DNA of 64,000 nt from Escherichia coli (GCF_024502345.1 NZ_JALDNN010000001.1), one strand, 5' to 3'. Positions 17,334-57,302 are shown, numbered from the stretch's first letter. Made by a program: numbers and translations. Notes: generated by a model not told the origin, from the sequence alone.

Positions 17334-18390
17334 GGCTTTGTTGAATAAATCAGATTTCGGGTAAGTCTCCCCCGTAGCGGGTTGTGTTTTCAGGCAATAC
17401 GCACGCTTTCAGGCATACCTGCTTTCGTCATTTTGTTCAGCGCTCGTACCAGGGCCATAGCCTCTGCAACCTGACCATCGTAGTCACGCAGTGTCAGTGA
17501 ACCCCCGAACAGCTGTTTTACCCGGTACATCGCCGTTTCCGCTATCGAGCGACGGTTGTAATCTGTTGTCCATTTCCACCGCGCATTACTCCCGGTCATT
17601 CGCTGATTAGCCACTGCACGGTTACGGTCTGCATATTCACCGGGCCAGTAACCCGCACCTTTTCGGGGAGGGATAAGCGCGCTGATTTTCTTACGCCGCA
17701 GTTCATCGTGACATAGCCGGGTATCGTAAGCGCCATCGGCGGCGGCTGACCTGATTTTCCGGTGGGTTTGCCGGATTAACCCGGGGAAGGCCTCTGAGTC
17801 CGTAACGTTGTTCAGCGACAGGTCAGCGCAGATGATTTCATGTGTTTTACTGTCAACGGCGAGATGCAGCTTACGCCAGATACGGCGGCGTTCCTGGCCA
17901 TGCTTTTTGACTTTCCACTCGCCTTCACCGAAGACCTTCAGCCCGGTGGAATCAATTACCAGGTGTGCGATTTCACCCCGGGTGGGCGTTTTGAAACTGA
18001 CATTAACCGACTTTGCCCGCCTGCTGACACAGCTGTAATCCGGGCAGCGTAGCGGAACGTTCATCAGAGAAAAAATGGAATCAATAAAGCCCTGCGCAGC
18101 GCGCAGGGTCAGCCTGAATACGCGTTTAATGACCAGCACAGTCGTGATGGCAAGGTCAGAATAGCGCTGAGGTCTGCCTCGTGAAGAAGGTGTTGCTGAC
18201 TCATACCAGGCCTGAATAGCTTCATCATCCAGCCAGAAAGTTATGGAGCCACGGTTGATGAGGGCTTTATTGTAGGTGGGCCAGTTGGTGATTTTGAACT
18301 TTTGCTTTGCCACGGAACGGTCTGCGTTGTCGGGAAGATACGTGATCTGATCCTTCAACTCAGCAAAAGTTCGATTTATTCAACAAAGCC
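17334..18390 (-). mobile_element. IS903-group element copy B (inverted), 9-bp TSD CCTTATCCC
   Basis: Terminal IRs at 17334..17351 and 18373..18390; CCTTATCCC at 17325..17333 and 18391..18399. Confidence 0.92.
17390..18358 (-). CDS. IS903-group transposase (322 aa), identical to copy A
   Basis: Identical translation to 6097..7065. Confidence 0.9.
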   Translation of the reverse strand: MKDQITYLPDNADRSVAKQKFKITNWPTYNKALINRGSITFWLDDEAIQAWYESATPSSRGRPQRYSDLAITTVLVIKRVFRLTLRAAQGFIDSIFSLMNVPLRCPDYSCVSRRAKSVNVSFKTPTRGEIAHLVIDSTGLKVFGEGEWKVKKHGQERRRIWRKLHLAVDSKTHEIICADLSLNNVTDSEAFPGLIRQTHRKIRSAAADGAYDTRLCHDELRRKKISALIPPRKGAGYWPGEYADRNRAVANQRMTGSNARWKWTTDYNRRSIAETAMYRVKQLFGGSLTLRDYDGQVAEAMALVRALNKMTKAGMPESVRIA

Positions 18391-34948: not shown

Positions 34949-35506
34949 TTATCCTTCGATAAAAGCCATCCCTGTAAATGTCCGTCTCGGGTTGCCACGT
35001 TCAATCTGGTGATGGAACATTCGCCGCTGCGATTTCAGCACCGCGCTATTTTCCTGTTGCTGCTGCTCCAGCTTCCAGGCAATCAGCAATCGTGCCAGCC
35101 GCTTGTTAGCATGCTGACTACGCTCTGACTGAACCTTCACGCTAATACCGGATGCCAAATGCGTGGCGCGTACCGCCGAGTCGGTTTTATTGACATGTTG
35201 ACCGCCCGGCCCCGACGAACGCAACGTCTCATAACGGATTGCATCCGATTGTTCCTGCTCATCAGCGGTAAAACGCCCAATGCCCAGAAACCAGTTTTTG
35301 CGCCCATGATGAGGCCGATACGGACTCGGACAAATCCACTGAATAGTGCCGCACCAGCTTTCGCTTAATGCCCATGCGTTATCGCCATCCAGAGAAACCA
35401 GCGCCGAACGCAGCGTGTCAGAGTAGCGGCCTGTTTCTGTTTCCAGCACCGTTACCGCGACGTCTTGTCGGGTAAAAACGACCAACAGAGAAGAACGCTG
35501 CGCCAA
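34949..35506 (-). pseudogene. prfH: prfH (peptide chain release factor homologue), N-terminally truncated/fused
   Basis: ...[58 protein letters not shown]...[13 protein letters not shown]...; canonical N-terminus absent. Confidence 0.75.
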
Positions 35507-35672
35507 TCGGGTAGCCGCGTCCGGGGTGTAAATCTGGCATCCCCACTACGCGCTGCATGTTGGGTAAATTTGCCGTGGTGTGTAATTGTTGGATCGCTAA
35601 ACTCTCGATCCACAGGTCATCAGATGCGATGGTAAATACCGCATCGGATAAGGGAAGAATATATTTGCCCAT
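35418..35672 (-). pseudogene. ykfJ: ykfJ (RtcB-like ligase) N-terminal fragment
   Basis: [62 protein letters not shown]... then frame lost. Confidence 0.65.
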
Positions 35673-35989
35673 GTACCATTCCATTTATACTCGTCATACT
35701 TCAAGTTGCATTTACTGCGACTGCGTTCGTTCACCCCAGTCACTTACTTATGTAAGCTCCTGGCGATTCACTCGCTTGTCGCCTTCCTGCAACTCGAATT
35801 ATTTAGAGTATATAAATATAAAAATCAGGAAATGGCAGACGAATCCAGGGCAAGAAAAAAAGAATTAATCCTGGAAAGGTCTGCAAAGAGTCATTGATAA
35901 AGGATTTGTCATGATTTACCTCCTTGCAGTTTGTGGAATAAGAAAACGCGCACATACCAAGCGGGCGTTATTTTCATTGCAAGCTGGAT

Positions 35990-36442
35990 TTAATGTTGCG
36001 GTTTATATCGCATATAAAAATTAGTAAACCACGCTCCCCGGCATTCAACGCGCTGCTGCTTAACTGTCTGAAAACCATAACGTTCAAAAAAGGGTTTTGC
36101 GGTTATGCTGGCATCTACCGTAAGTTCGGATTCAGACTTAATCAATGGTTTTAACAAGGCGCTGGCAACCCCGCGGCGGGTGTATTCAGGGTCAACAAAT
36201 AACATATCGATATAACGTTCAATGCGGGAAATAAAACCAACCGGTTGTGCATTAATGACGGCAACCCGCACTTGTGATTTCGCGAGTTTCTCCTTCCAGC
36301 GAGATTCGTCAATCTGCGCCCAGGCGGCAATTTGTTGTGGAGAATAGTGCTGACTGGAGGTCATCGTAACCGCTCTAATGAAAATAGCGCATAGTTGCTG
36401 AAAATCGCCAGGCTGATAGTTTCTTATTTGTATGTTATTCAT
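35990..36442 (-). CDS. yafP: GNAT-family acetyltransferase YafP
   Basis: 150-aa ORF recognised as YafP; overlaps dinB stop by 4 bp. Confidence 0.85.
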
Positions 36443-37494
36443 AATCCCAGCACCAGTTGTCTTTCCATTTGCGGATCCAGCAACGTCACATGCAGCCCCA
36501 CCAGTCGCACACCTCGCCCGCCGCGGCGTTCATCCCAGGTTTTACGCGCGGTGGCGATTAAGTCAGCTTTATTCAGCCTCGGCCAGACGTGCTCCTGGGT
36601 GGTTTGCTGAAAATCGTCGAACTTTAATTTCACCCCCTGGCGAGCAATCAGTAAATCAGGTTTTACCTTTGCCAGACGGCGTTCAAGTTCCGGATACAGC
36701 CGCTCGATAATCGCTTCACATTCAGACCAGTGATGAATATCTTCCGCCATCGTGCGTTCCACGCCGACGGATTTTCGCAACCGTTCGCTGTTAACATCGC
36801 GTTCGTCAATCCCCTGACTACGCTCCCACAAAATGCGGCCAAATTTGCCAAAGCGTTTAAGCAGCATCACCAGATCACACTTTTGTACATCACCGCAGGT
36901 CCGCAGCCCCATCGCTTCCAGTTTTGCCGCCGAGACTTTGCCGACGCCGGGGATTTTTGCCAGTGGTAAGGTTTGTAAAAATGCCGGAACTTCTGCCGGC
37001 GTAATCACAAACTGGCCGTTGGGTTTATTCATGTCGGAGGCGATTTTGGCGAGAAACTTTACTGGTGCCACGCCCGCAGACGCCGTCAGTTGCAGCTCGC
37101 TGAAAATCGTCTGGCGGATTTCCTGGGCGATGAGGGTCGCAGAACCGTGGCAATGGACGCTATCGGTGACATCGAGATAAGCCTCATCCAGTGACAACGG
37201 TTCAATGCGCGAAGTGTAGCGCGAGAAGATTTCACGGATATGATTTGAGGCTTCTTTGTAGGCGTCAAAGCGCCCCGGAAGCAAGGTGAGATGTGGGCAT
37301 AATTTGAGCGCCATCCCAGTAGGCATAGCGCTACGTACGCCAAATTTACGCGCGGGATAATTGGCGGTGCTGATCACCCCCCGACGTTCGCGGCTGCCGC
37401 CAATAGCAATAGGGATATCGCGCAGGGCGGGATTGTCGCGCATCTCCACCGCTGCGAAAAAGCAGTCCATATCCACATGAATGATTTTACGCAT
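36439..37494 (-). CDS. dinB: DNA polymerase IV
   Basis: [33 protein letters not shown]... 351 aa. Confidence 0.95.
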
Positions 37495-37564
37495 TGCTCA
37501 CCTCTCAACACTGGTAAAGTATACAGTGATTTCAGGGTTTGAGAAATGCGTAAAGATTCAGCAT

Positions 37565-38335
37565 TTAGCGCGTTCGTTGTGAAAGCACCTGCTGCTTATC
37601 CAGCTTTTGCACCAGCGGCTGCACCACTTTATCCCCATGCTGACCAAAGTATTGATACAGCGTATCGGACGCGCTTTTAGTCAGCACCATAATCTCAATG
37701 CGCCGATTGCCCGCGCTTTGCGGATTTTTGGCATCCAGCAGCATCTGGTCCGCCATTGCGCTTACCTGCATCACTTTATCTTCCGGCATTCCGGCCTCTT
37801 CCAGCACCCGACGAGCCGAAAGCGCGCGGTCACCCGAAAGGTTCCAGTTGTTGTAGATATTGTTTTTGTAGGCCATCGCATCGGTATGCCCGGTAATAAT
37901 AATTTTATTATCGAGCGAGTCGAACACTGGCGCTAACTCCACCAACAGCGTTTTAAAGAACGGCATAATCTGCGCGCTGCCGCGTTCGAACATATTGCGA
38001 TTCTGGTCGTCTTTAATCAGCACGCGTAATCCCTGCGGGACAATCTCCATCTCCAGATTCGCTTCCATATGCGCATCACGGGCAATGGTGTTGATACTGG
38101 TTGCCAGCTCACCAAGCTCGGTGGCGGATTTCTTCTTCAGCAGCGCCGTTTTCTCGTTGACGTCGCGCGCTTTTTTCTCCGTCTCTTCCGGCACCGCCAC
38201 GGTGGCAGGTTTTGGCGGATGAGACGGGCTGATTTTATTTAACGGCGACAGCCCACCACCGTTAAAAATCGACTGCCCGTGCAGCGCGGCGATAATGCTT
38301 TCACGCTCGGATTTACTGACGCTGTTGACAATCAA
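37565..38335 (-). pseudogene. lafU: lafU (mbhA) MotB-like Flag-2 remnant (OmpA-like C-terminal domain only)
   Basis: ...IIITGHTDAMAYKNNIYNNWNLSGDRALSARRVLEEAGMPEDKV... peptidoglycan-binding domain with no N-terminal TM part. Confidence 0.7.
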
Positions 38336-40034
38336 CTTTATCGTCGTCACCAAAGGGGCCGAGCGTATTTCCGAGGTTTCTGCCCGCTTCACCCTGGACG
38401 CGATGCCCGGCAAGCAGATGGCGATTGACGCCGATCTTAACGCCGGGTTGATCAACCAGGCGCAGGCGCAAACCCGGCGTAAAGATGTCGCCAGCGAGGC
38501 CGATTTCTACGGCGCGATGGACGGGGCATCGAAGTTTGTGCGCGGGGATGCCATCGCCGGGATGATGATTCTGGCGATCAACCTGATCGGCGGCGTCTGT
38601 ATCGGGATCTTCAAATACAACCTGAGCGCCGATGCCGCCTTCCAGCAATATGTGCTGATGACCATCGGCGACGGCCTGGTGGCGCAGATCCCTTCCCTGC
38701 TGCTCTCCACGGCGGCGGCGATAATCGTCACCCACGTCAGCGACAACGGCGATATCGCCCATGACGTGCGCCACCAGTTGCTGGCAAGCCCGTCGGTGCT
38801 CTACACCGCTACCGGGATTATGTTTGTGCTGGCGGTGGTGCCGGGAATGCCGCATCTGCCGTTTTTGCTGTTCAGCGCCCTGCTTGGCTTTACCGGCTGG
38901 CGAATGAGCAAACGCCCGCAGGCAGCGCAGGCGGAAGAGAAAAGCCTCGAAACGCTGACCCGCACCATCACTGAAACCAGCGAGCAACAGGTCAGTTGGG
39001 AAACCATTCCGCTGATCGAGCCCATCAGCTTAAGCCTCGGCTACAAACTGGTGGCGCTGGTGGACAAAGCGCAGGGCAACCCGCTCACCCAGCGGATTCG
39101 CGGCGTGCGGCAGGTGATTTCTGACGGCAACGGCGTGCTGCTGCCGGAGATCCGCATTCGGGAAAACTTCCGCCTTAAGCCCAGCCAGTACGCTATTTTC
39201 ATCAACGGCATTAAGGCTGATGAAGCGGATATTCCGACGGATAAACTGATGGCCCTGCCCTCCAGCGAAACCTACGGCGAGATTGACGGCGTGCTGGGGA
39301 ACGACCCGGCGTACGGGATGCCGGTGACCTGGATCCAGCCTGCGCAGAAAGCGAAGGCGCTGAATATGGGGTATCAGGTGATCGACAGCGCCAGCGTGAT
39401 TGCCACCCATGTGAATAAGATTGTACGCAGCTATATTCCTGATTTGTTTAACTATGACGACATCACACAGTTGCATAACCGTTTGTCGTCGATGGCACCG
39501 CGCCTGGCAGAAGACTTAAGCGCGGCGCTGAATTACAGCCAGTTGCTGAAAGTGTACCGCACACTACTGACCGAAGGCGTTTCCCTGCGCGATATCGTCA
39601 CCATCGCCACCGTGCTGGTCGCCAGTAGCGCGGTGACTAAAGATCATATTCTGCTGGCGGCCGATGTACGCCTGGCGCTGCGGCGCAGCATTACCCATCC
39701 GTTCGTTCGCAAGCAGGAGCTGACGGTGTATACGCTGAATAATGAGCTGGAAAATCTGCTGACCAACGTGGTGAATCAGGCGCAACAGGGCGGTAAAGTG
39801 ATGCTCGACAGCGTGCCAGTGGACCCGAATATGCTCAACCAGTTCCAGAGCACGATGCCACGGGTGAAAGAGCAGATGAAAGCGGCGGGGAAAGATCCGG
39901 TGCTGCTGGTGCCGCCGCAGCTGCGTCCTTTGCTGGCGCGCTACGCAAGGTTGTTTGCGCCGGGGCTGCATGTGCTGTCGTATAACGAAGTGCCGGACGA
40001 GCTGGAGTTGAAGATTATGGGGGCCTTGATGTAG
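38336..40034 (+). pseudogene. lfhA: lfhA (fhiA) FlhA-like Flag-2 remnant lacking N-terminus and promoter
   Basis: ...ERISEVSARFTLDAMPGKQMAIDADLNAGLI... starts mid-protein at the deletion junction. Confidence 0.75.
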
Positions 40035-40219: not shown

Positions 40220-40717
40220 TTATGAAATGATACGCTCCCCGGCACTAAAATCCGTTATGTCTCCCGCCCAATCAATGGGATATAACCCTCGCGCCACATC
40301 GCGATGGAACGTTGAGAATGGCCAATCTCTCACCTGCTTTACCCAGCCATGTTTCACTGGATTTATATAAATATAATCAACATGATGTCGGTAATCTGTG
40401 GTATTGCGAATGGCATGCTCCCAAAAACGCGGTTGCCAGATATTATTCAATCCGCAAGCATGGGTGAACTGCTTTTTAATCTCCCGCCAGCGGGAGGAAA
40501 AATCATCATCGCTTTCGGGTAATGTCCATATGCAATGCATATGCTCCGGCAAAACTACCCAGGCATTAATTTCAAAAGGTCTGGCTCGCTTAACTTTAAT
40601 AATGGCGTTACGGAGCGTCTGGTACTGGGTAGTCAAAAGTTGGCTTCGACGATTCCGTAAATTCACCGTGAAAAACCAGCTTCCCCCCTTGAGGTAATAA
40701 CGACGATATTCAGACAT
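40220..40717 (-). CDS. rayT: REP-associated tyrosine transposase RayT (YafM)
   Basis: 165-aa IS200-like TnpA flanked by REPs on both sides. Confidence 0.85.
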   Translation of the reverse strand: MSEYRRYYLKGGSWFFTVNLRNRRSQLLTTQYQTLRNAIIKVKRARPFEINAWVVLPEHMHCIWTLPESDDDFSSRWREIKKQFTHACGLNNIWQPRFWEHAIRNTTDYRHHVDYIYINPVKHGWVKQVRDWPFSTFHRDVARGLYPIDWAGDITDFSAGERIIS

Positions 40718-41851: not shown

Positions 41852-42112
41852 ATGGCTGCTAACGCGTTTGTTCGTGCCCGAATCGATGAAGATCTGAAGA
41901 ATCAGGCGGCGGACGTACTGGCCGGGATGGGGCTGACCATCTCTGACCTGGTTCGCATAACCCTCACAAAGGTCGCGCGTGAAAAGGCATTGCCGTTTGA
42001 TTTACGCGAGCCTAATCAATTAACCATTCAATCAATCAAAAACAGCGAAGCTGGCGTTGATGTTCATAAGGCCAAAGACGCCGATGATTTATTTGATAAA
42101 TTAGGAATTTAA
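41852..42112 (+). CDS. dinJ: antitoxin DinJ
   Basis: 86-aa ORF MAANAFVRARIDEDLKNQAADVLAGMGLTISDLVRITLTKVAREKALPF... Confidence 0.95.
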   Translation: MAANAFVRARIDEDLKNQAADVLAGMGLTISDLVRITLTKVAREKALPFDLREPNQLTIQSIKNSEAGVDVHKAKDADDLFDKLGI

Positions 42113-42114
42113 AT

Positions 42115-42393
42115 ATGATTCAAAGGGATATTGAATACTCGGGACAATTTTCAAAGGATGTAAAACTTGCACAAAAGCGTCATAAGGATATGAATAAATT
42201 GAAATATCTTATGACGCTTCTTATCAATAATGCTTTACCGCTTCCAGCTGTTTATAAAGACCACCCGCTGCAAGGTTCATGGAAAGGTTATCGCGATGCT
42301 CATGTCGAACCGGACTGGATCCTGATTTACAAACTTACCGATAAACTTTTACGATTTGAGAGAACTGGAACTCACGCGGCGCTCTTTGGGTAA
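42115..42393 (+). CDS. yafQ: mRNA interferase toxin YafQ
   Basis: 92-aa ORF immediately downstream of dinJ. Confidence 0.95.
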   Translation: MIQRDIEYSGQFSKDVKLAQKRHKDMNKLKYLMTLLINNALPLPAVYKDHPLQGSWKGYRDAHVEPDWILIYKLTDKLLRFERTGTHAALFG

Positions 42394-51100: not shown

Positions 51101-53246
51101 ATCACTTCAAAAAATTGGGATGTGTTTCCCCAAATCATCTATATCTTCCCAGCCTTATGCACCAAAAATAACGGCGCAAATAGTTAACAGATAGAATATC
51201 TGGCAATTTATGTTCCACTTTCCAGGCTTGCCTGTAATCGGGGATAATAGAAATATGTTCCATCAATTTTTTAAGTTCCATTTTGTCCCCCTTAATTATG
51301 CAATGAGTATTTGATCATGTATAAGCAATGAAAAACAGCTTTAGGTAATAAGGAACACCTCAATTATTGAACATAAAATGCGAATTATTTAGTACAAAAA
51401 AAACAGCATTACGTGATTTTTCCCTGGGAGTACAGTGTGAAGTTTCCGGCATGGCGGGATGCGGATGGGTTTGAACTGGGGTGAATAGGCACTACATGTC
51501 TACATTTTCCCGGTCACCAACCCCTCAATCTTATGAACTTAACCTCGGCTCACCGTTTTCGATTCCATCCAATAAATGACCCGGTTGGATGTGGGCTGAT
51601 CGCCAACAACTTTGCCATCTGCAGAGATTAGCTTCAGCTCTTTATTAGCCTCATCACCGAAGTAAATCATGCGGTAGCGAAAATAACCGCCCCAGGGTTC
51701 ACGTCCACCCAGCGAACTTTGCATAAACCAGGCGCGGGAGTCGTGAACCTGGTCATCATAGAGGGCCAGTAATTCAGCGCATGGCTGAGTACGCGTTCCC
51801 GTTCCCAGTGAATCAATAAAAAATTGTGGATAGAGTCCGTCTCCCATAGCCTTAATTTGCTGATATTCTTTTGCTTCATCATCGCCATTAATCAGATACA
51901 CCGGATATTTAGGAATGACATCCACAAGAATCTGAATGGCTTTCTCCATGACGCTGCCGTTAATATCGCGCGTCCATCCTTTATAATCGCTCTGAAATTC
52001 TCGGGCTGCCTCTCGCAACTGATACTGAGCATTGGTTGGGTCAAGGATAGGAATGCCCTGATTACTTTCATCAAGTGTGCCATTCCCTTTCTGCTTGTTC
52101 GCCCGCTCTTTTTCAATATTTTCCATTTGTTCTTTACGCGCTTTAGCCTCTTTATCAAGTCCATCTTTATCCAGCTGTGGCGCCTTAATATAAAAAGGTT
52201 GCACAAGAAGGCTGTTATTCGCATAGCGACCGATACGCCAGGCGGTGATCCAGCCGATCTGATCGCTAATTGCGCTTTCAAGAACCTGGGCAAGTTGATA
52301 GGAGTGATAACCTTCCCTCGTATCAATCATTTCTTCTGTACCCTGCAAGGTGGTGTTCAGCAGCGTTTGTCGCCAGATGTTGAAGCGTTTTGTTAATGAA
52401 TTAGCAATCGTAAATTCCTTTACGCTAGAAGGACTCATAATTCGCAGAGGCGACACACCTTTTATTAATGGAGTAACAAATTTAGAATAAACAGCAAGTG
52501 GTGCTCCTGAATCAAATGCAGCAAGATACATATCATGCAGTGCTATCTGAGAAAGAATTTCGCCTGAGTCACCACAGGACTTCCCCTGATCGCGAACGGG
52601 ATAGCCACCACCGACATCAGAGTGCATCCCCGGATAGATAATTTCCGTCTGGACGACGGATTGAATCCAGCGGAAAGCACAGCCGCTGCTCATGCGCGGC
52701 AACGAAGTGGCGGCAGCATTTAATCAGGCCGGGAAACTGCCTCTCATCAGGGAGTTGCTGAGTACTATCGGCCCATCCCATATGACCGGCAGCGCCCGGT
52801 AAAACATGCGCCGCCCCCACAGAAGCTACGGTATCCAGCAGCCCCAAAAACTCAATACTGACAGCTAACCCGGCCAGCATCACCTGTTGCTCCTGCGGGC
52901 AAGCTAACTGAGTCAACCAGTTAACAAAAGTTCGTGCTTCCGCTGCGCCACGGGAAAATCCGTAGATAAACAGCTTTACGTTTAGCAGGCGCGGACTGGC
53001 TTGCTCTAACAGTCCCTGTAATTTTTCCAGGTAGGGGTTAATCACATTGCGACGATTCACTTCACCAGTCATAGGCCAGGGAGCGCGCATAAGAGGAATG
53101 TGCTCTTTTGCCACATTATCATCCAGTCGCTTATGGGAAGGGTCAATGGAATAGTTCAGGGCATCCACGAGGCGTAATAATGCCCAATTAATTCGATCTT
53201 CACCACCAGTAGCGAACTCCAGCCCGCTGTTGCTGTAATCCATTTC

Positions 53247-54303
53247 GGCTTTGTTGAATAAATCGAACTTTTGCTGAGTTGAAGGATCAGATCACGTATC
53301 TTCCCGACAACGCAGACCGTTCCGTGGCAAAGCAAAAGTTCAAAATCACCAACTGGCCCACCTACAATAAAGCCCTCATCAACCGTGGCTCCATAACTTT
53401 CTGGCTGGATGATGAAGCTATTCAGGCCTGGTATGAGTCAGCAACACCTTCTTCACGAGGCAGACCTCAGCGCTATTCTGACCTTGCCATCACGACTGTG
53501 CTGGTCATTAAACGCGTATTCAGGCTGACCCTGCGCGCTGCGCAGGGCTTTATTGATTCCATTTTTTCTCTGATGAACGTTCCGCTACGCTGCCCGGATT
53601 ACAGCTGTGTCAGCAGGCGGGCAAAGTCGGTTAATGTCAGTTTCAAAACGCCCACCCGGGGTGAAATCGCACACCTGGTAATTGATTCCACCGGGCTGAA
53701 GGTCTTCGGTGAAGGCGAGTGGAAAGTCAAAAAGCATGGCCAGGAACGCCGCCGTATCTGGCGTAAGCTGCATCTCGCCGTTGACAGTAAAACACATGAA
53801 ATCATCTGCGCTGACCTGTCGCTGAACAACGTTACGGACTCAGAGGCCTTCCCCGGGTTAATCCGGCAAACCCACCGGAAAATCAGGTCAGCCGCCGCCG
53901 ATGGCGCTTACGATACCCGGCTATGTCACGATGAACTGCGGCGTAAGAAAATCAGCGCGCTTATCCCTCCCCGAAAAGGTGCGGGTTACTGGCCCGGTGA
54001 ATATGCAGACCGTAACCGTGCAGTGGCTAATCAGCGAATGACCGGGAGTAATGCGCGGTGGAAATGGACAACAGATTACAACCGTCGCTCGATAGCGGAA
54101 ACGGCGATGTACCGGGTAAAACAGCTGTTCGGGGGTTCACTGACACTGCGTGACTACGATGGTCAGGTTGCAGAGGCTATGGCCCTGGTACGAGCGCTGA
54201 ACAAAATGACGAAAGCAGGTATGCCTGAAAGCGTGCGTATTGCCTGAAAACACAACCCGCTACGGGGGAGACTTACCCGAAATCTGATTTATTCAACAAA
54301 GCC
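53247..54303 (+). mobile_element. IS903-group element copy C, 9-bp TSD ATCCATTTC
   Basis: Terminal IRs at 53247..53264 and 54286..54303; ATCCATTTC at 53238..53246 and 54304..54312. Confidence 0.92.
53279..54247 (+). CDS. IS903-group transposase (322 aa), identical to copies A and B
   Basis: Identical translation. Confidence 0.9.
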   Translation: MKDQITYLPDNADRSVAKQKFKITNWPTYNKALINRGSITFWLDDEAIQAWYESATPSSRGRPQRYSDLAITTVLVIKRVFRLTLRAAQGFIDSIFSLMNVPLRCPDYSCVSRRAKSVNVSFKTPTRGEIAHLVIDSTGLKVFGEGEWKVKKHGQERRRIWRKLHLAVDSKTHEIICADLSLNNVTDSEAFPGLIRQTHRKIRSAAADGAYDTRLCHDELRRKKISALIPPRKGAGYWPGEYADRNRAVANQRMTGSNARWKWTTDYNRRSIAETAMYRVKQLFGGSLTLRDYDGQVAEAMALVRALNKMTKAGMPESVRIA

Positions 54304-56138: not shown

Positions 56139-57302
56139 TCAAACTCCCGGTTGTAGTTCCACAAGCATCTCGCGAGTCTTGCCGGCCCGCTCCACTAACA
56201 AGACCACAACATCTCCAACGTTCTTGTCGTCTAGCCGGGCCTGTAATGTGGTGACGTCGTCGACGGCGATACCGTCGATGCTGATAACGCGATCGCCGGG
56301 CACGATGCCGCCTGCGGTGACCTCGACGCCGACGAGCCCGGCCCTGTGCGCCGCCGAGCCCGGCGTCACGCGCAATACGAATACGCCCTTACTGCCGGTC
56401 AGCGCCTGCAGACGCGCGTTGAGCTGCTCATCCACCTCGATGCCCAGCGCCGGACGGATGTACTTGCCGGTCTTTATGAGTTGCGGCACCACGCGCATGA
56501 CGGTATCGACCGGCACCGCAAAGCCGATGCCGGCCGAGGCGCCAGACGGACTGTAGATGGCGGTATTGATGCCGATCAGCCGCCCAGCCGAATCGAGCAG
56601 CGGGCCACCGGAATTGCCGGGGTTGATAGCGGCGTCGGTCTGGATCAGGTGGTCAATGGCCGGGCCACTGGCGTCGCCGGAAAGGGTGCGGTCAAGCGCC
56701 GAGACGATGCCGGTGGTGAGCGTCCAGTCGAGCCCGAAGGGATTGCCAATGGCAAAGACCTTTTGCCCCACCTTGAGATCGGCACTGGTGCCCACCGGCA
56801 CCGCCGGCGGGCGCTTGAAGCCGACGCCAATCTTGAGTACCGCGATGTCGTGCGCAGGACTAGCGCCAACGAGCGCAGCCTGATAATCGCGACCGTCGGC
56901 CAGTTTGACCGTGGCAGACGATGCCCCCTGGATCACGTGGAAGTTGGTCACCACGTGGCCGGCATCGTCCCAGATGAAGCCGGAGCCGGTGCCGCGCGGC
57001 ACGGAAAAGACATTGCGCGACCAGACGTGACGCACTAGTTGTGCCGTGGTGATGTAAACCACCGACCCGCGCGATTTCTCGAACAGCTCGATGGTGGTTT
57101 TTTCGTCGGCGGCCAGGTCGCCGCGCGGCGTCACCGTGCGCTCCTGCGTTTCGTGGGGACTGAACCAGGCTTCGATGGCGGGCAGGAACTGCCACAGCAG
57201 CATGAGTGCGGCGATGCAGCCAGTGATGACGAGCCAGCGCCGGATGAAGCGGTCCGGCGCCGGGCGGCTGTAGGGGTCGGGGTAGGTCACGTCATTCTCC
57301 AT
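56139..57302 (-). CDS. HtrA/DegP-family serine protease with PDZ domain (high-GC)
   Basis: Trypsin-like motifs ...TNFHVI..., ...GNSGGPL...; C-terminal PDZ-like region. Confidence 0.8.
   Translation of the reverse strand: MENDVTYPDPYSRPAPDRFIRRWLVITGCIAALMLLWQFLPAIEAWFSPHETQERTVTPRGDLAADEKTTIELFEKSRGSVVYITTAQLVRHVWSRNVFSVPRGTGSGFIWDDAGHVVTNFHVIQGASSATVKLADGRDYQAALVGASPAHDIAVLKIGVGFKRPPAVPVGTSADLKVGQKVFAIGNPFGLDWTLTTGIVSALDRTLSGDASGPAIDHLIQTDAAINPGNSGGPLLDSAGRLIGINTAIYSPSGASAGIGFAVPVDTVMRVVPQLIKTGKYIRPALGIEVDEQLNARLQALTGSKGVFVLRVTPGSAAHRAGLVGVEVTAGGIVPGDRVISIDGIAVDDVTTLQARLDDKNVGDVVVLLVERAGKTREMLVELQPGV

Follow-up and report, generated by a model that had tools for sequence, protein, structure and literature searches.

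The gene for DNA polymerase IV in Escherichia coli K-12 heads a four-gene operon, dinB-yafN-yafO-yafP (McKenzie 2003 and Singletary 2009, as cited in PMC3105422 and PMC7167474), which is under LexA/SOS control (PMC7167474). In the stretch of E. coli DNA analyzed here, 64,000 nucleotides in length and hereafter called the window, dinB is followed directly by yafP, which raises the question of whether the intervening toxin-antitoxin genes were lost from this locus or were never there. The arrangement has been reported before. Gutierrez et al. (2011, NAR; PMC3105422) found that 40–50% of E. coli strains have only dinB and yafP, that the two genes always overlap by ATGA in such strains, CFT073 included, and that group A is mostly four-gene, group B1 two-gene, and groups B2 and D mixed. 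They proposed a four-gene ancestor because E. fergusonii has four genes, attributed the two-gene form to a deletion between two ATGA sequences, and inferred at least three losses of yafNO (PMC3105422). Fraikin et al. (2020; PMC7167474) described yafNO as “inserted immediately downstream of dinB” and noted that in UTI89 and other strains dinB-yafP is a bicistronic operon that has been left undisturbed. The two-gene allele is already known, then, in its description as well as in its interpretation, and the question posed by the window is where its own copy belongs and which of the two arrangements is the older.

Sequence comparisons

Open reading frames (ORFs) in the window were listed and compared with Pfam profiles, K-12 proteins were searched against the whole 64 kb by tblastn, and the dinB-yafP junction was aligned at the base level with K-12 MG1655. 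The frequency of the junction was counted using an 81-nt probe laid across the window junction and matched over at least 80% of its length. Divergence was compared among 11 four-gene loci, namely K-12, E. whittamii, a divergent “E. coli” species representative, and eight more E. coli loci chosen to span the range of identities. Outgroup loci were reached through protein searches for YafP homologues followed by contig look-ups; the contig scan with YafP gave four Escherichia loci, with E. fergusonii, E. albertii, and the main E. coli representative not among them.

Structure of the locus

The window contains an intact dinB (36439..37494, minus strand) encoding a DNA polymerase IV of 351 aa and an intact yafP (35990..36442, minus strand) encoding a GNAT-family N-acetyltransferase of 150 aa, both recognized from the ORF list, tblastn, and Pfam. 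DinB matched the IMS, IMS_HHH, IMS_HHH_1, and IMS_C profiles, each over its cut-off, and YafP matched the GNAT domains Acetyltransf_10, _7, and _1. Both proteins aligned over their full length with their K-12 counterparts in the tblastn search of the whole window (99.7% amino acid identity for DinB, 96.7% for YafP; 98.4% and 96.9% for the nucleotide sequences of the genes), and YafP is 97% identical to a cluster with 5206 member sequences. On the coding strand the junction reads CTG GGA TTA TGA ATA ACA, with an ATG nested in TTATGA, so that the yafP start codon (36442..36440) and the dinB stop codon TGA (36441..36439) share the ATGA at 36439..36442 (minus strand), as seen both in the sequence and in the alignment.

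An earlier note on the window, made from its sequence alone, had stated that the dinB stop overlaps the yafP start at these four positions and leaves no room for yafNO, and the ORFs, the sequence, and the K-12 alignment all agree with it; the operon order that it gave for K-12 is likewise that of the MG1655 annotation. Remnants of yafN or yafO at the junction, the finding that the note had named as speaking against its claim, were sought by K-12 alignment and by tblastn across the whole window, and none were found. No coding sequence for YafN or YafO was detected anywhere in the 64 kb with the K-12 proteins (best E = 2.1). The window is without the YafN-YafO type II toxin-antitoxin system, a YafO toxin (Pfam PF13957) whose gene follows that of a Phd/YefM-type antitoxin, YafN, at the dinB-yafP locus, and this absence is a direct structural fact rather than a statistical pattern, for which chance is not an issue. 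The gene content is that of the two-gene operon of the CFT073 type: an intact dinB, an intact and overlapping yafP, and neither yafN nor yafO between them. The nearby dinJ-yafQ pair (41852..42390), which the note had called intact, is so, with full-length tblastn matches for dinJ (41852..42109, plus strand; 86 aa, 98.8% amino acid identity to K-12 DinJ) and yafQ (42115..42390, plus strand; 92 aa, 97.8% amino acid identity to K-12 YafQ); it is a neighboring type II toxin-antitoxin pair outside the dinB operon.

The MG1655 annotation gives the order lafU'-dinB-yafN-yafO-yafP-ykfJ'-prfH'-pepD-gpt, and the window holds the same neighborhood in reverse orientation. The sole structural difference between the two in the base-level alignment is a clean, scarless gap of 759 bp that leaves no yafNO bases in the window. 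K-12 reads ...CTGGG[ATTATGA]TGTATAC...(yafN, yafO)...GAATTTAT[ATTATGA]ATAACATAC..., with two copies of ATTATGA, whereas the window reads ...CTGGG[ATTATGA]ATAACATAC..., with a single copy at 36439..36445 (minus strand). The 759-bp indel is thus a 752-bp yafN-yafO segment, bracketed in four-gene strains by the two copies, plus one copy of a 7-nt direct repeat, which is given as 4 nt (ATGA) in the literature. The repeat does not vary among the 11 four-gene loci, and all nine two-gene loci examined, the window included, have an identical junction. In K-12 the extra 759 bp comprise a 51-nt intergenic region, yafN, yafO, a 6-nt tail past the yafO stop codon, and the second ATTATGA, and yafP begins 9 nt after yafO, whereas in the window it overlaps dinB. 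This second ATTATGA, at the right cassette junction of K-12, duplicates the end of dinB (7 nt, including the stop codon) and serves no function there.

Several features of the surrounding sequence were recorded. Downstream of yafP (34949-35684, minus strand), an RtcB-family gene is cut down to an 88-aa ORF and is followed by a 185-aa RF-1-domain ORF (prfH); the sole Pfam match of the 88-aa ORF was to the first 33 positions of the RtcB profile and fell below the curated cut-off. The rtcB pseudogene is in the same state in K-12, and ST131, NCTC8623, and E. marmotae have a full rtcB of 379 aa. On the other side of dinB, lafU- and lfhA-like ORFs (37565-40034) adjoin rayT (40220-40717) and form the same remnant of a lateral-flagella (Flag-2) cluster as in K-12; E. 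marmotae has more flagellar and motor genes upstream of dinB (FliL, a sigma factor, MotA, and MotB). Farther away, three ORFs of 322 aa (6097-7065, plus strand; 17390-18358, minus strand; 53279-54247, plus strand) are probably copies of one insertion sequence, which we read as IS5-like, the one that was tested being a DDE transposase (Pfam DDE_Tnp_1_5 and DDE_Tnp_1). Two ORFs of 387 aa lie at 51539-52702 and 56139-57302 (both minus strand), and the one tested matches the C-terminal domain of a Tle1-like type VI secretion phospholipase effector.

Promoter region and predicted expression

The window and the K-12 operon share the same dinB promoter region. From the lafU stop codon to the dinB start, approximately 100 nt match K-12 at every position, and they include a LexA-box-type sequence, CACTGTATACTTTACCAGTG (CTG-N10-CAG; 37509..37528, minus strand; read from the sequence), which we take to be the K-12 dinB LexA site. 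A promoter-like site with the hexamers TTCTCA-16-TATACT (37545..37518, minus strand) overlaps this box, and a LexA-controlled promoter at this position would drive a single dinB-yafP transcript. Within dinB, promoter-like sites were confined to the beginning of the gene (37508..37481) and its 5′ part (37268..37240), and the totals were not above those of shuffled sequence; no promoter-like site that could serve as an internal yafP promoter was found on the coding strand of the 3′ half. Two-gene yafP would be without a second, yafN-proximal promoter such as the K-12 cassette would supply, and with it would lose any transcription that the yafN-proximal region provides in K-12.

A stop/start overlap of the ATGA form is the classic arrangement for coupling by termination and reinitiation. 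Judging from the nested ATGA, YafP is most likely made by reinitiation coupled to the translation of dinB, which would tie YafP output to that of DinB; the sequence before the yafP ATG offers only weak Shine-Dalgarno-like matches (GGTG at −12..−9 and GGGA at −6..−3). YafP expression in a two-gene strain would then depend entirely on dinB being both transcribed and translated. Gutierrez et al. (2011) proposed that YafP synthesis in two-gene strains needs frameshifting (PMC3105422); since yafP has an ATG of its own, no frameshift should be needed. In the two-gene strain CFT073, a YafP-YFP fusion was made in stationary phase and after mitomycin C treatment, which shows SOS induction of YafP from the two-gene operon in that strain (PMC3105422).

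Frequency of the two alleles

The window junction was present in 2568 of 5426 complete E. coli genomes (47%) and the 752-bp K-12 yafNO segment in 2847 of the same 5426 (52%). The dinB-yafP locus itself was found in 5416 genomes, of which the two-gene and yafNO counts together account for 5415, and this complementarity means that two-gene genomes do not carry yafNO elsewhere. The two-gene dinB-yafP arrangement is one of two about equally frequent E. coli alleles and is real but ordinary. The earlier note had called the missing pair a strain-level difference, which is accurate with respect to K-12, but what it describes is not a peculiarity of one strain; the species as a whole is polymorphic at roughly 50:50 (2568/5426 and 2847/5426). 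We are confident that what the window contains is the common CFT073-type allele of the SOS-regulated dinB operon, with two genes. The note's word “absent” should not be equated with “lost”, as the outgroups described below indicate that the yafNO-free arrangement is the older.

Over positions 26000-50000 of the window, the best of the 5426 complete E. coli genomes was approximately 98% identical across the 24 kb, and the best match for the dinB-yafP region was strain 88-3493, at 98.9%. The source lineage is not closely represented among these 5426 genomes.

Junctions outside E. coli

In the following lineages outside E. coli, dinB is joined to yafP with at most a few nucleotides between them and no yafNO. 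E. marmotae has the ATGA overlap (GGGGTTATGAATAAC); an Escherichia-like contig (L040) has a dinB TAA, then ATAAT, then the yafP ATG; Citrobacter amalonaticus has a dinB TAA, 5 nt, and the yafP ATG within the synteny dpaA-dinB-yafP-pepD-gpt-frsA-crl; Kluyvera ascorbata has a dinB TAA, 2 nt, and the yafP ATG; and three further Enterobacteriaceae contigs have dinB-yafP spacers of 1–2 nt. In a multiple alignment, the window junction is colinear without gaps with those of E. marmotae, L040, and C. amalonaticus over a span that begins in the C-terminal codons of DinB, takes in the stop codon, and ends at the conserved I/L-R-x-Y codons of YafP. On this alignment the start ATG of E. coli yafP arises from a TAA-to-TGA change, and codon 4 (ATA) of the E. 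coli gene corresponds to the ancestral start.

Independent deletions would hardly be expected to arrive at one and the same 5-nt spacing in separate genera, which argues that the two-gene form is ancestral, and the copy of the last 7 nt of dinB at the right junction of K-12 is what insertion into a two-gene allele would leave. These comparisons suggest that, at depth, the two-gene arrangement came first and that yafNO was inserted between the dinB stop codon and yafP. A four-gene ancestor with many precise losses would be the less likely alternative; the old cassette of the gut-metagenome loci described below and the four-gene state reported for E. fergusonii (PMC3105422) speak for it.

Divergence and probable transfer of yafNO

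Across the 11 four-gene loci, mean pairwise dS was 0.193 for dinB, 0.093 for yafN, 0.042 for yafO, and 0.132 for yafP, values that come from short genes. By this measure the cassette is 2–5 times less diverged at synonymous sites than its flanks. Between K-12 and E. whittamii, where the regional background identity is 94.5%, mismatches numbered 15 of 755 in the cassette and 95 of 1509 in the flanks (Fisher p = 2e-6), a contrast that was not significant for every pair of loci. The trough in divergence is centered on yafO and rises gradually into both flanks with no step at the cassette ends, a shape that looks like recombination tracts rather than a discrete element.

A concrete recombinant was found in the Escherichia-like contig L041 (1-482), in which the yafO tail, a 15-nt spacer, and yafP up to nt ~110 share 92% identity with a locus from a different genus (L045, 3877-4358), and the rest of yafP is 93–100% identical to the Escherichia-like L040 (161-642). 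To judge from this chimera, yafNO was apparently imported through homologous recombination, with a crossover that fell within yafP. L045 is one of three gut-metagenome Enterobacteriaceae contigs (L045-47; L045:2097-4358) with the order nqrF-nqrM-dinB-yafN-yafO-yafP-pepD, in which the left junction is that of E. coli (dinB TGA|TGTATAC), the 7-nt repeat is lacking, and the yafO-yafP spacer is 15 nt. Their identities to K-12 were 78.6% for yafN, 76.9% for yafO, 80.3% for dinB, and 80.6% for pepD-frsA; cassette and flanks have diverged from K-12 to the same degree, which implies that yafNO has been at the dinB-yafP site for a long time in some lineage.

Other routes for the cassette were considered. 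An origin as an insertion sequence or transposon was rejected, as the cassette, although bracketed by the 7-nt direct repeat, lacks terminal inverted repeats and has no transposase and no ORFs other than yafN and yafO. In four-gene loci of the L045 type, flanking repeats are absent altogether. Independent mobility on plasmids was rejected as well, since the yafNO DNA matches in PLSDB all keep dinB and/or yafP sequence; these records appear to be F-prime plasmids, or else entries of chromosome size that were filed under plasmids, and no donor of the cassette was found among the PLSDB matches. Plasmid YafO-family toxins of Klebsiella, Enterobacter, and Pseudomonas are only 32–37% identical, and the family also occurs in unrelated chromosomal contexts in Klebsiella. 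A joint arrival of yafN-yafO-yafP as a low-GC block (GC 0.42–0.44, against 0.54 for dinB) was dropped because yafP has normal GC in Kluyvera (0.563, against 0.573 for dinB); Citrobacter yafP is intermediate, and yafP is syntenic in both genera. As a separate observation, the dinB-yafN intergenic region of K-12 (L001:6948-6992) holds three copies of a TATTATG-type motif with a 12-bp period, from the dinB stop codon on, with a fourth, similar motif at the K-12 yafP start; these may be a YafN operator and are perhaps related to the ATTATGA repeat.

Taken to the depth of the genera, we judge it somewhat better than even that the published polarity, with a four-gene ancestor and at least three deletions, is wrong: dinB-yafP adjacency would predate the split between Escherichia and Citrobacter, yafNO would have been inserted and have passed between species and even genera through homologous recombination in the flanking dinB and yafP, and the last 7 nt of dinB, duplicated in the E. 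coli-type insertion, would make that insertion precisely reversible. If this is true, the locus works as a natural on/off switch for the presence of a toxin-antitoxin pair within an SOS operon.

Origin of the window allele

Within Escherichia, the two forms would interconvert through homologous recombination, for which dinB and yafP provide the arms, and probably also through precise excision between the two ATTATGA copies, and the window allele may accordingly be either primary or the product of a precise secondary loss. That its lineage never had yafNO at this site, the four-gene form elsewhere being an inserted cassette spread by homologous recombination, falls only just short of an even chance in our estimation. 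The outgroup adjacency and gapless colinearity, the reduced synonymous divergence of the cassette, the chimeric L041, the YafO-family toxins on plasmids and in unrelated Klebsiella contexts, and the insertion view held in PMC7167474 all speak for it. The reading is held back by a junction sequence that cannot tell a cassette never gained from one precisely lost, by a cassette with neither inverted repeats nor a transposase and no PLSDB plasmid copy free of dinB/yafP flanks, and by the lineage-specific flanks of four-gene alleles, which reach within 36–66 bp of the cassette and are awkward for simple RecA-mediated import.

Secondary loss, in which a four-gene ancestor of the window lineage had the 759 bp removed by recombination or replication slippage between the short direct repeats, is a reading that we take seriously while leaning against it. 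An invariant repeat lies around the cassette in all 11 four-gene loci, neither the dinB tree nor the yafP tree separates two-gene from four-gene alleles, which are interleaved on each, and at least three losses were inferred by Gutierrez et al. (PMC3105422). The flanks of ST131 (two-gene) and FDAARGOS_1300 (four-gene) are identical up to the junction (363 bp to its left, 216 bp to its right), and the haplotype that these two share can be told from other four-gene alleles by differences no farther than 66 bp (left) and 36 bp (right) from the cassette. For that pair, a recent precise excision between the repeats is the simplest explanation and fits better than import. Deletions of another kind do occur at the dinB-yafP locus, as witnessed by a third, rare allele, dinB-yafN-yafP, in Escherichia sp. 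E1V33 (L002:3676-4010) and E. coli GF43 (L051:1552-1880), in which yafO alone was removed by a 379-bp deletion at a TTAT/TTAC microhomology and an orphan antitoxin gene was left behind; a partial cassette is present in at most 16 of the 2847 yafNO-positive complete genomes. For the window itself, however, the flank haplotype occurs in no sampled four-gene allele, the nearest differences lying 36–40 bp to the left and 22–85 bp to the right; the two-gene form is the older at depth; and precise excision restores the exact ancestral sequence, so the window cannot separate loss from never having gained the pair. Recurrent loss, as proposed by Gutierrez et al., and insertion, as described by Fraikin et al., are probably both right at different time depths.

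That yafNO is missing through mis-assembly or a collapsed repeat is barely credible and has in its favor only the general possibility and the lack of a complete E. coli genome matching the window above ~98%, given that the identical 81-nt junction recurs in 2568 independently finished genomes, that both reading frames are intact, and that a 7-nt repeat is far too short for assembly collapse.

Implications and comparison with known systems

The strain from which the window derives would have Pol IV and YafP under SOS control without the SOS-linked YafO mRNA interferase, and results obtained with yafNO in K-12 do not transfer to a two-gene strain of this kind. The polymorphism itself is textbook-level for the field, and the added value of the present analysis is modest and solely evolutionary. 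It consists of the 7-nt repeat, the updated frequencies of 47% and 52%, the outgroup evidence for an older yafNO-free form, the reduced divergence of the cassette together with a concrete recombinant, and the rare three-gene allele from which the toxin gene was deleted. The outgroup junctions, the repeat, the low divergence of the cassette, and L041 suggest that the locus originally had no yafNO and that it is the toxin-antitoxin pair that moves. A mobile yafNO fits the current view of chromosomal toxin-antitoxin systems as selfish inserts rather than integrated components of stress responses.

A similar polymorphism is known from relA-mazEF-mazG and relA-mazG, in which a type II toxin-antitoxin pair is likewise present or absent between two cistrons of an otherwise undisturbed housekeeping operon (PMC7167474); mazEF differs from yafNO in its locus and toxin family. 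The closest counterpart of the window is the two-gene operon of CFT073 and UTI89, which has the same gene order, the same ATGA overlap, and the same absence of yafNO, and ST131 shares the 81-nt junction. Between the window and these two-gene strains the differences are allelic only, with flanks 95.9% identical to ST131-type loci.
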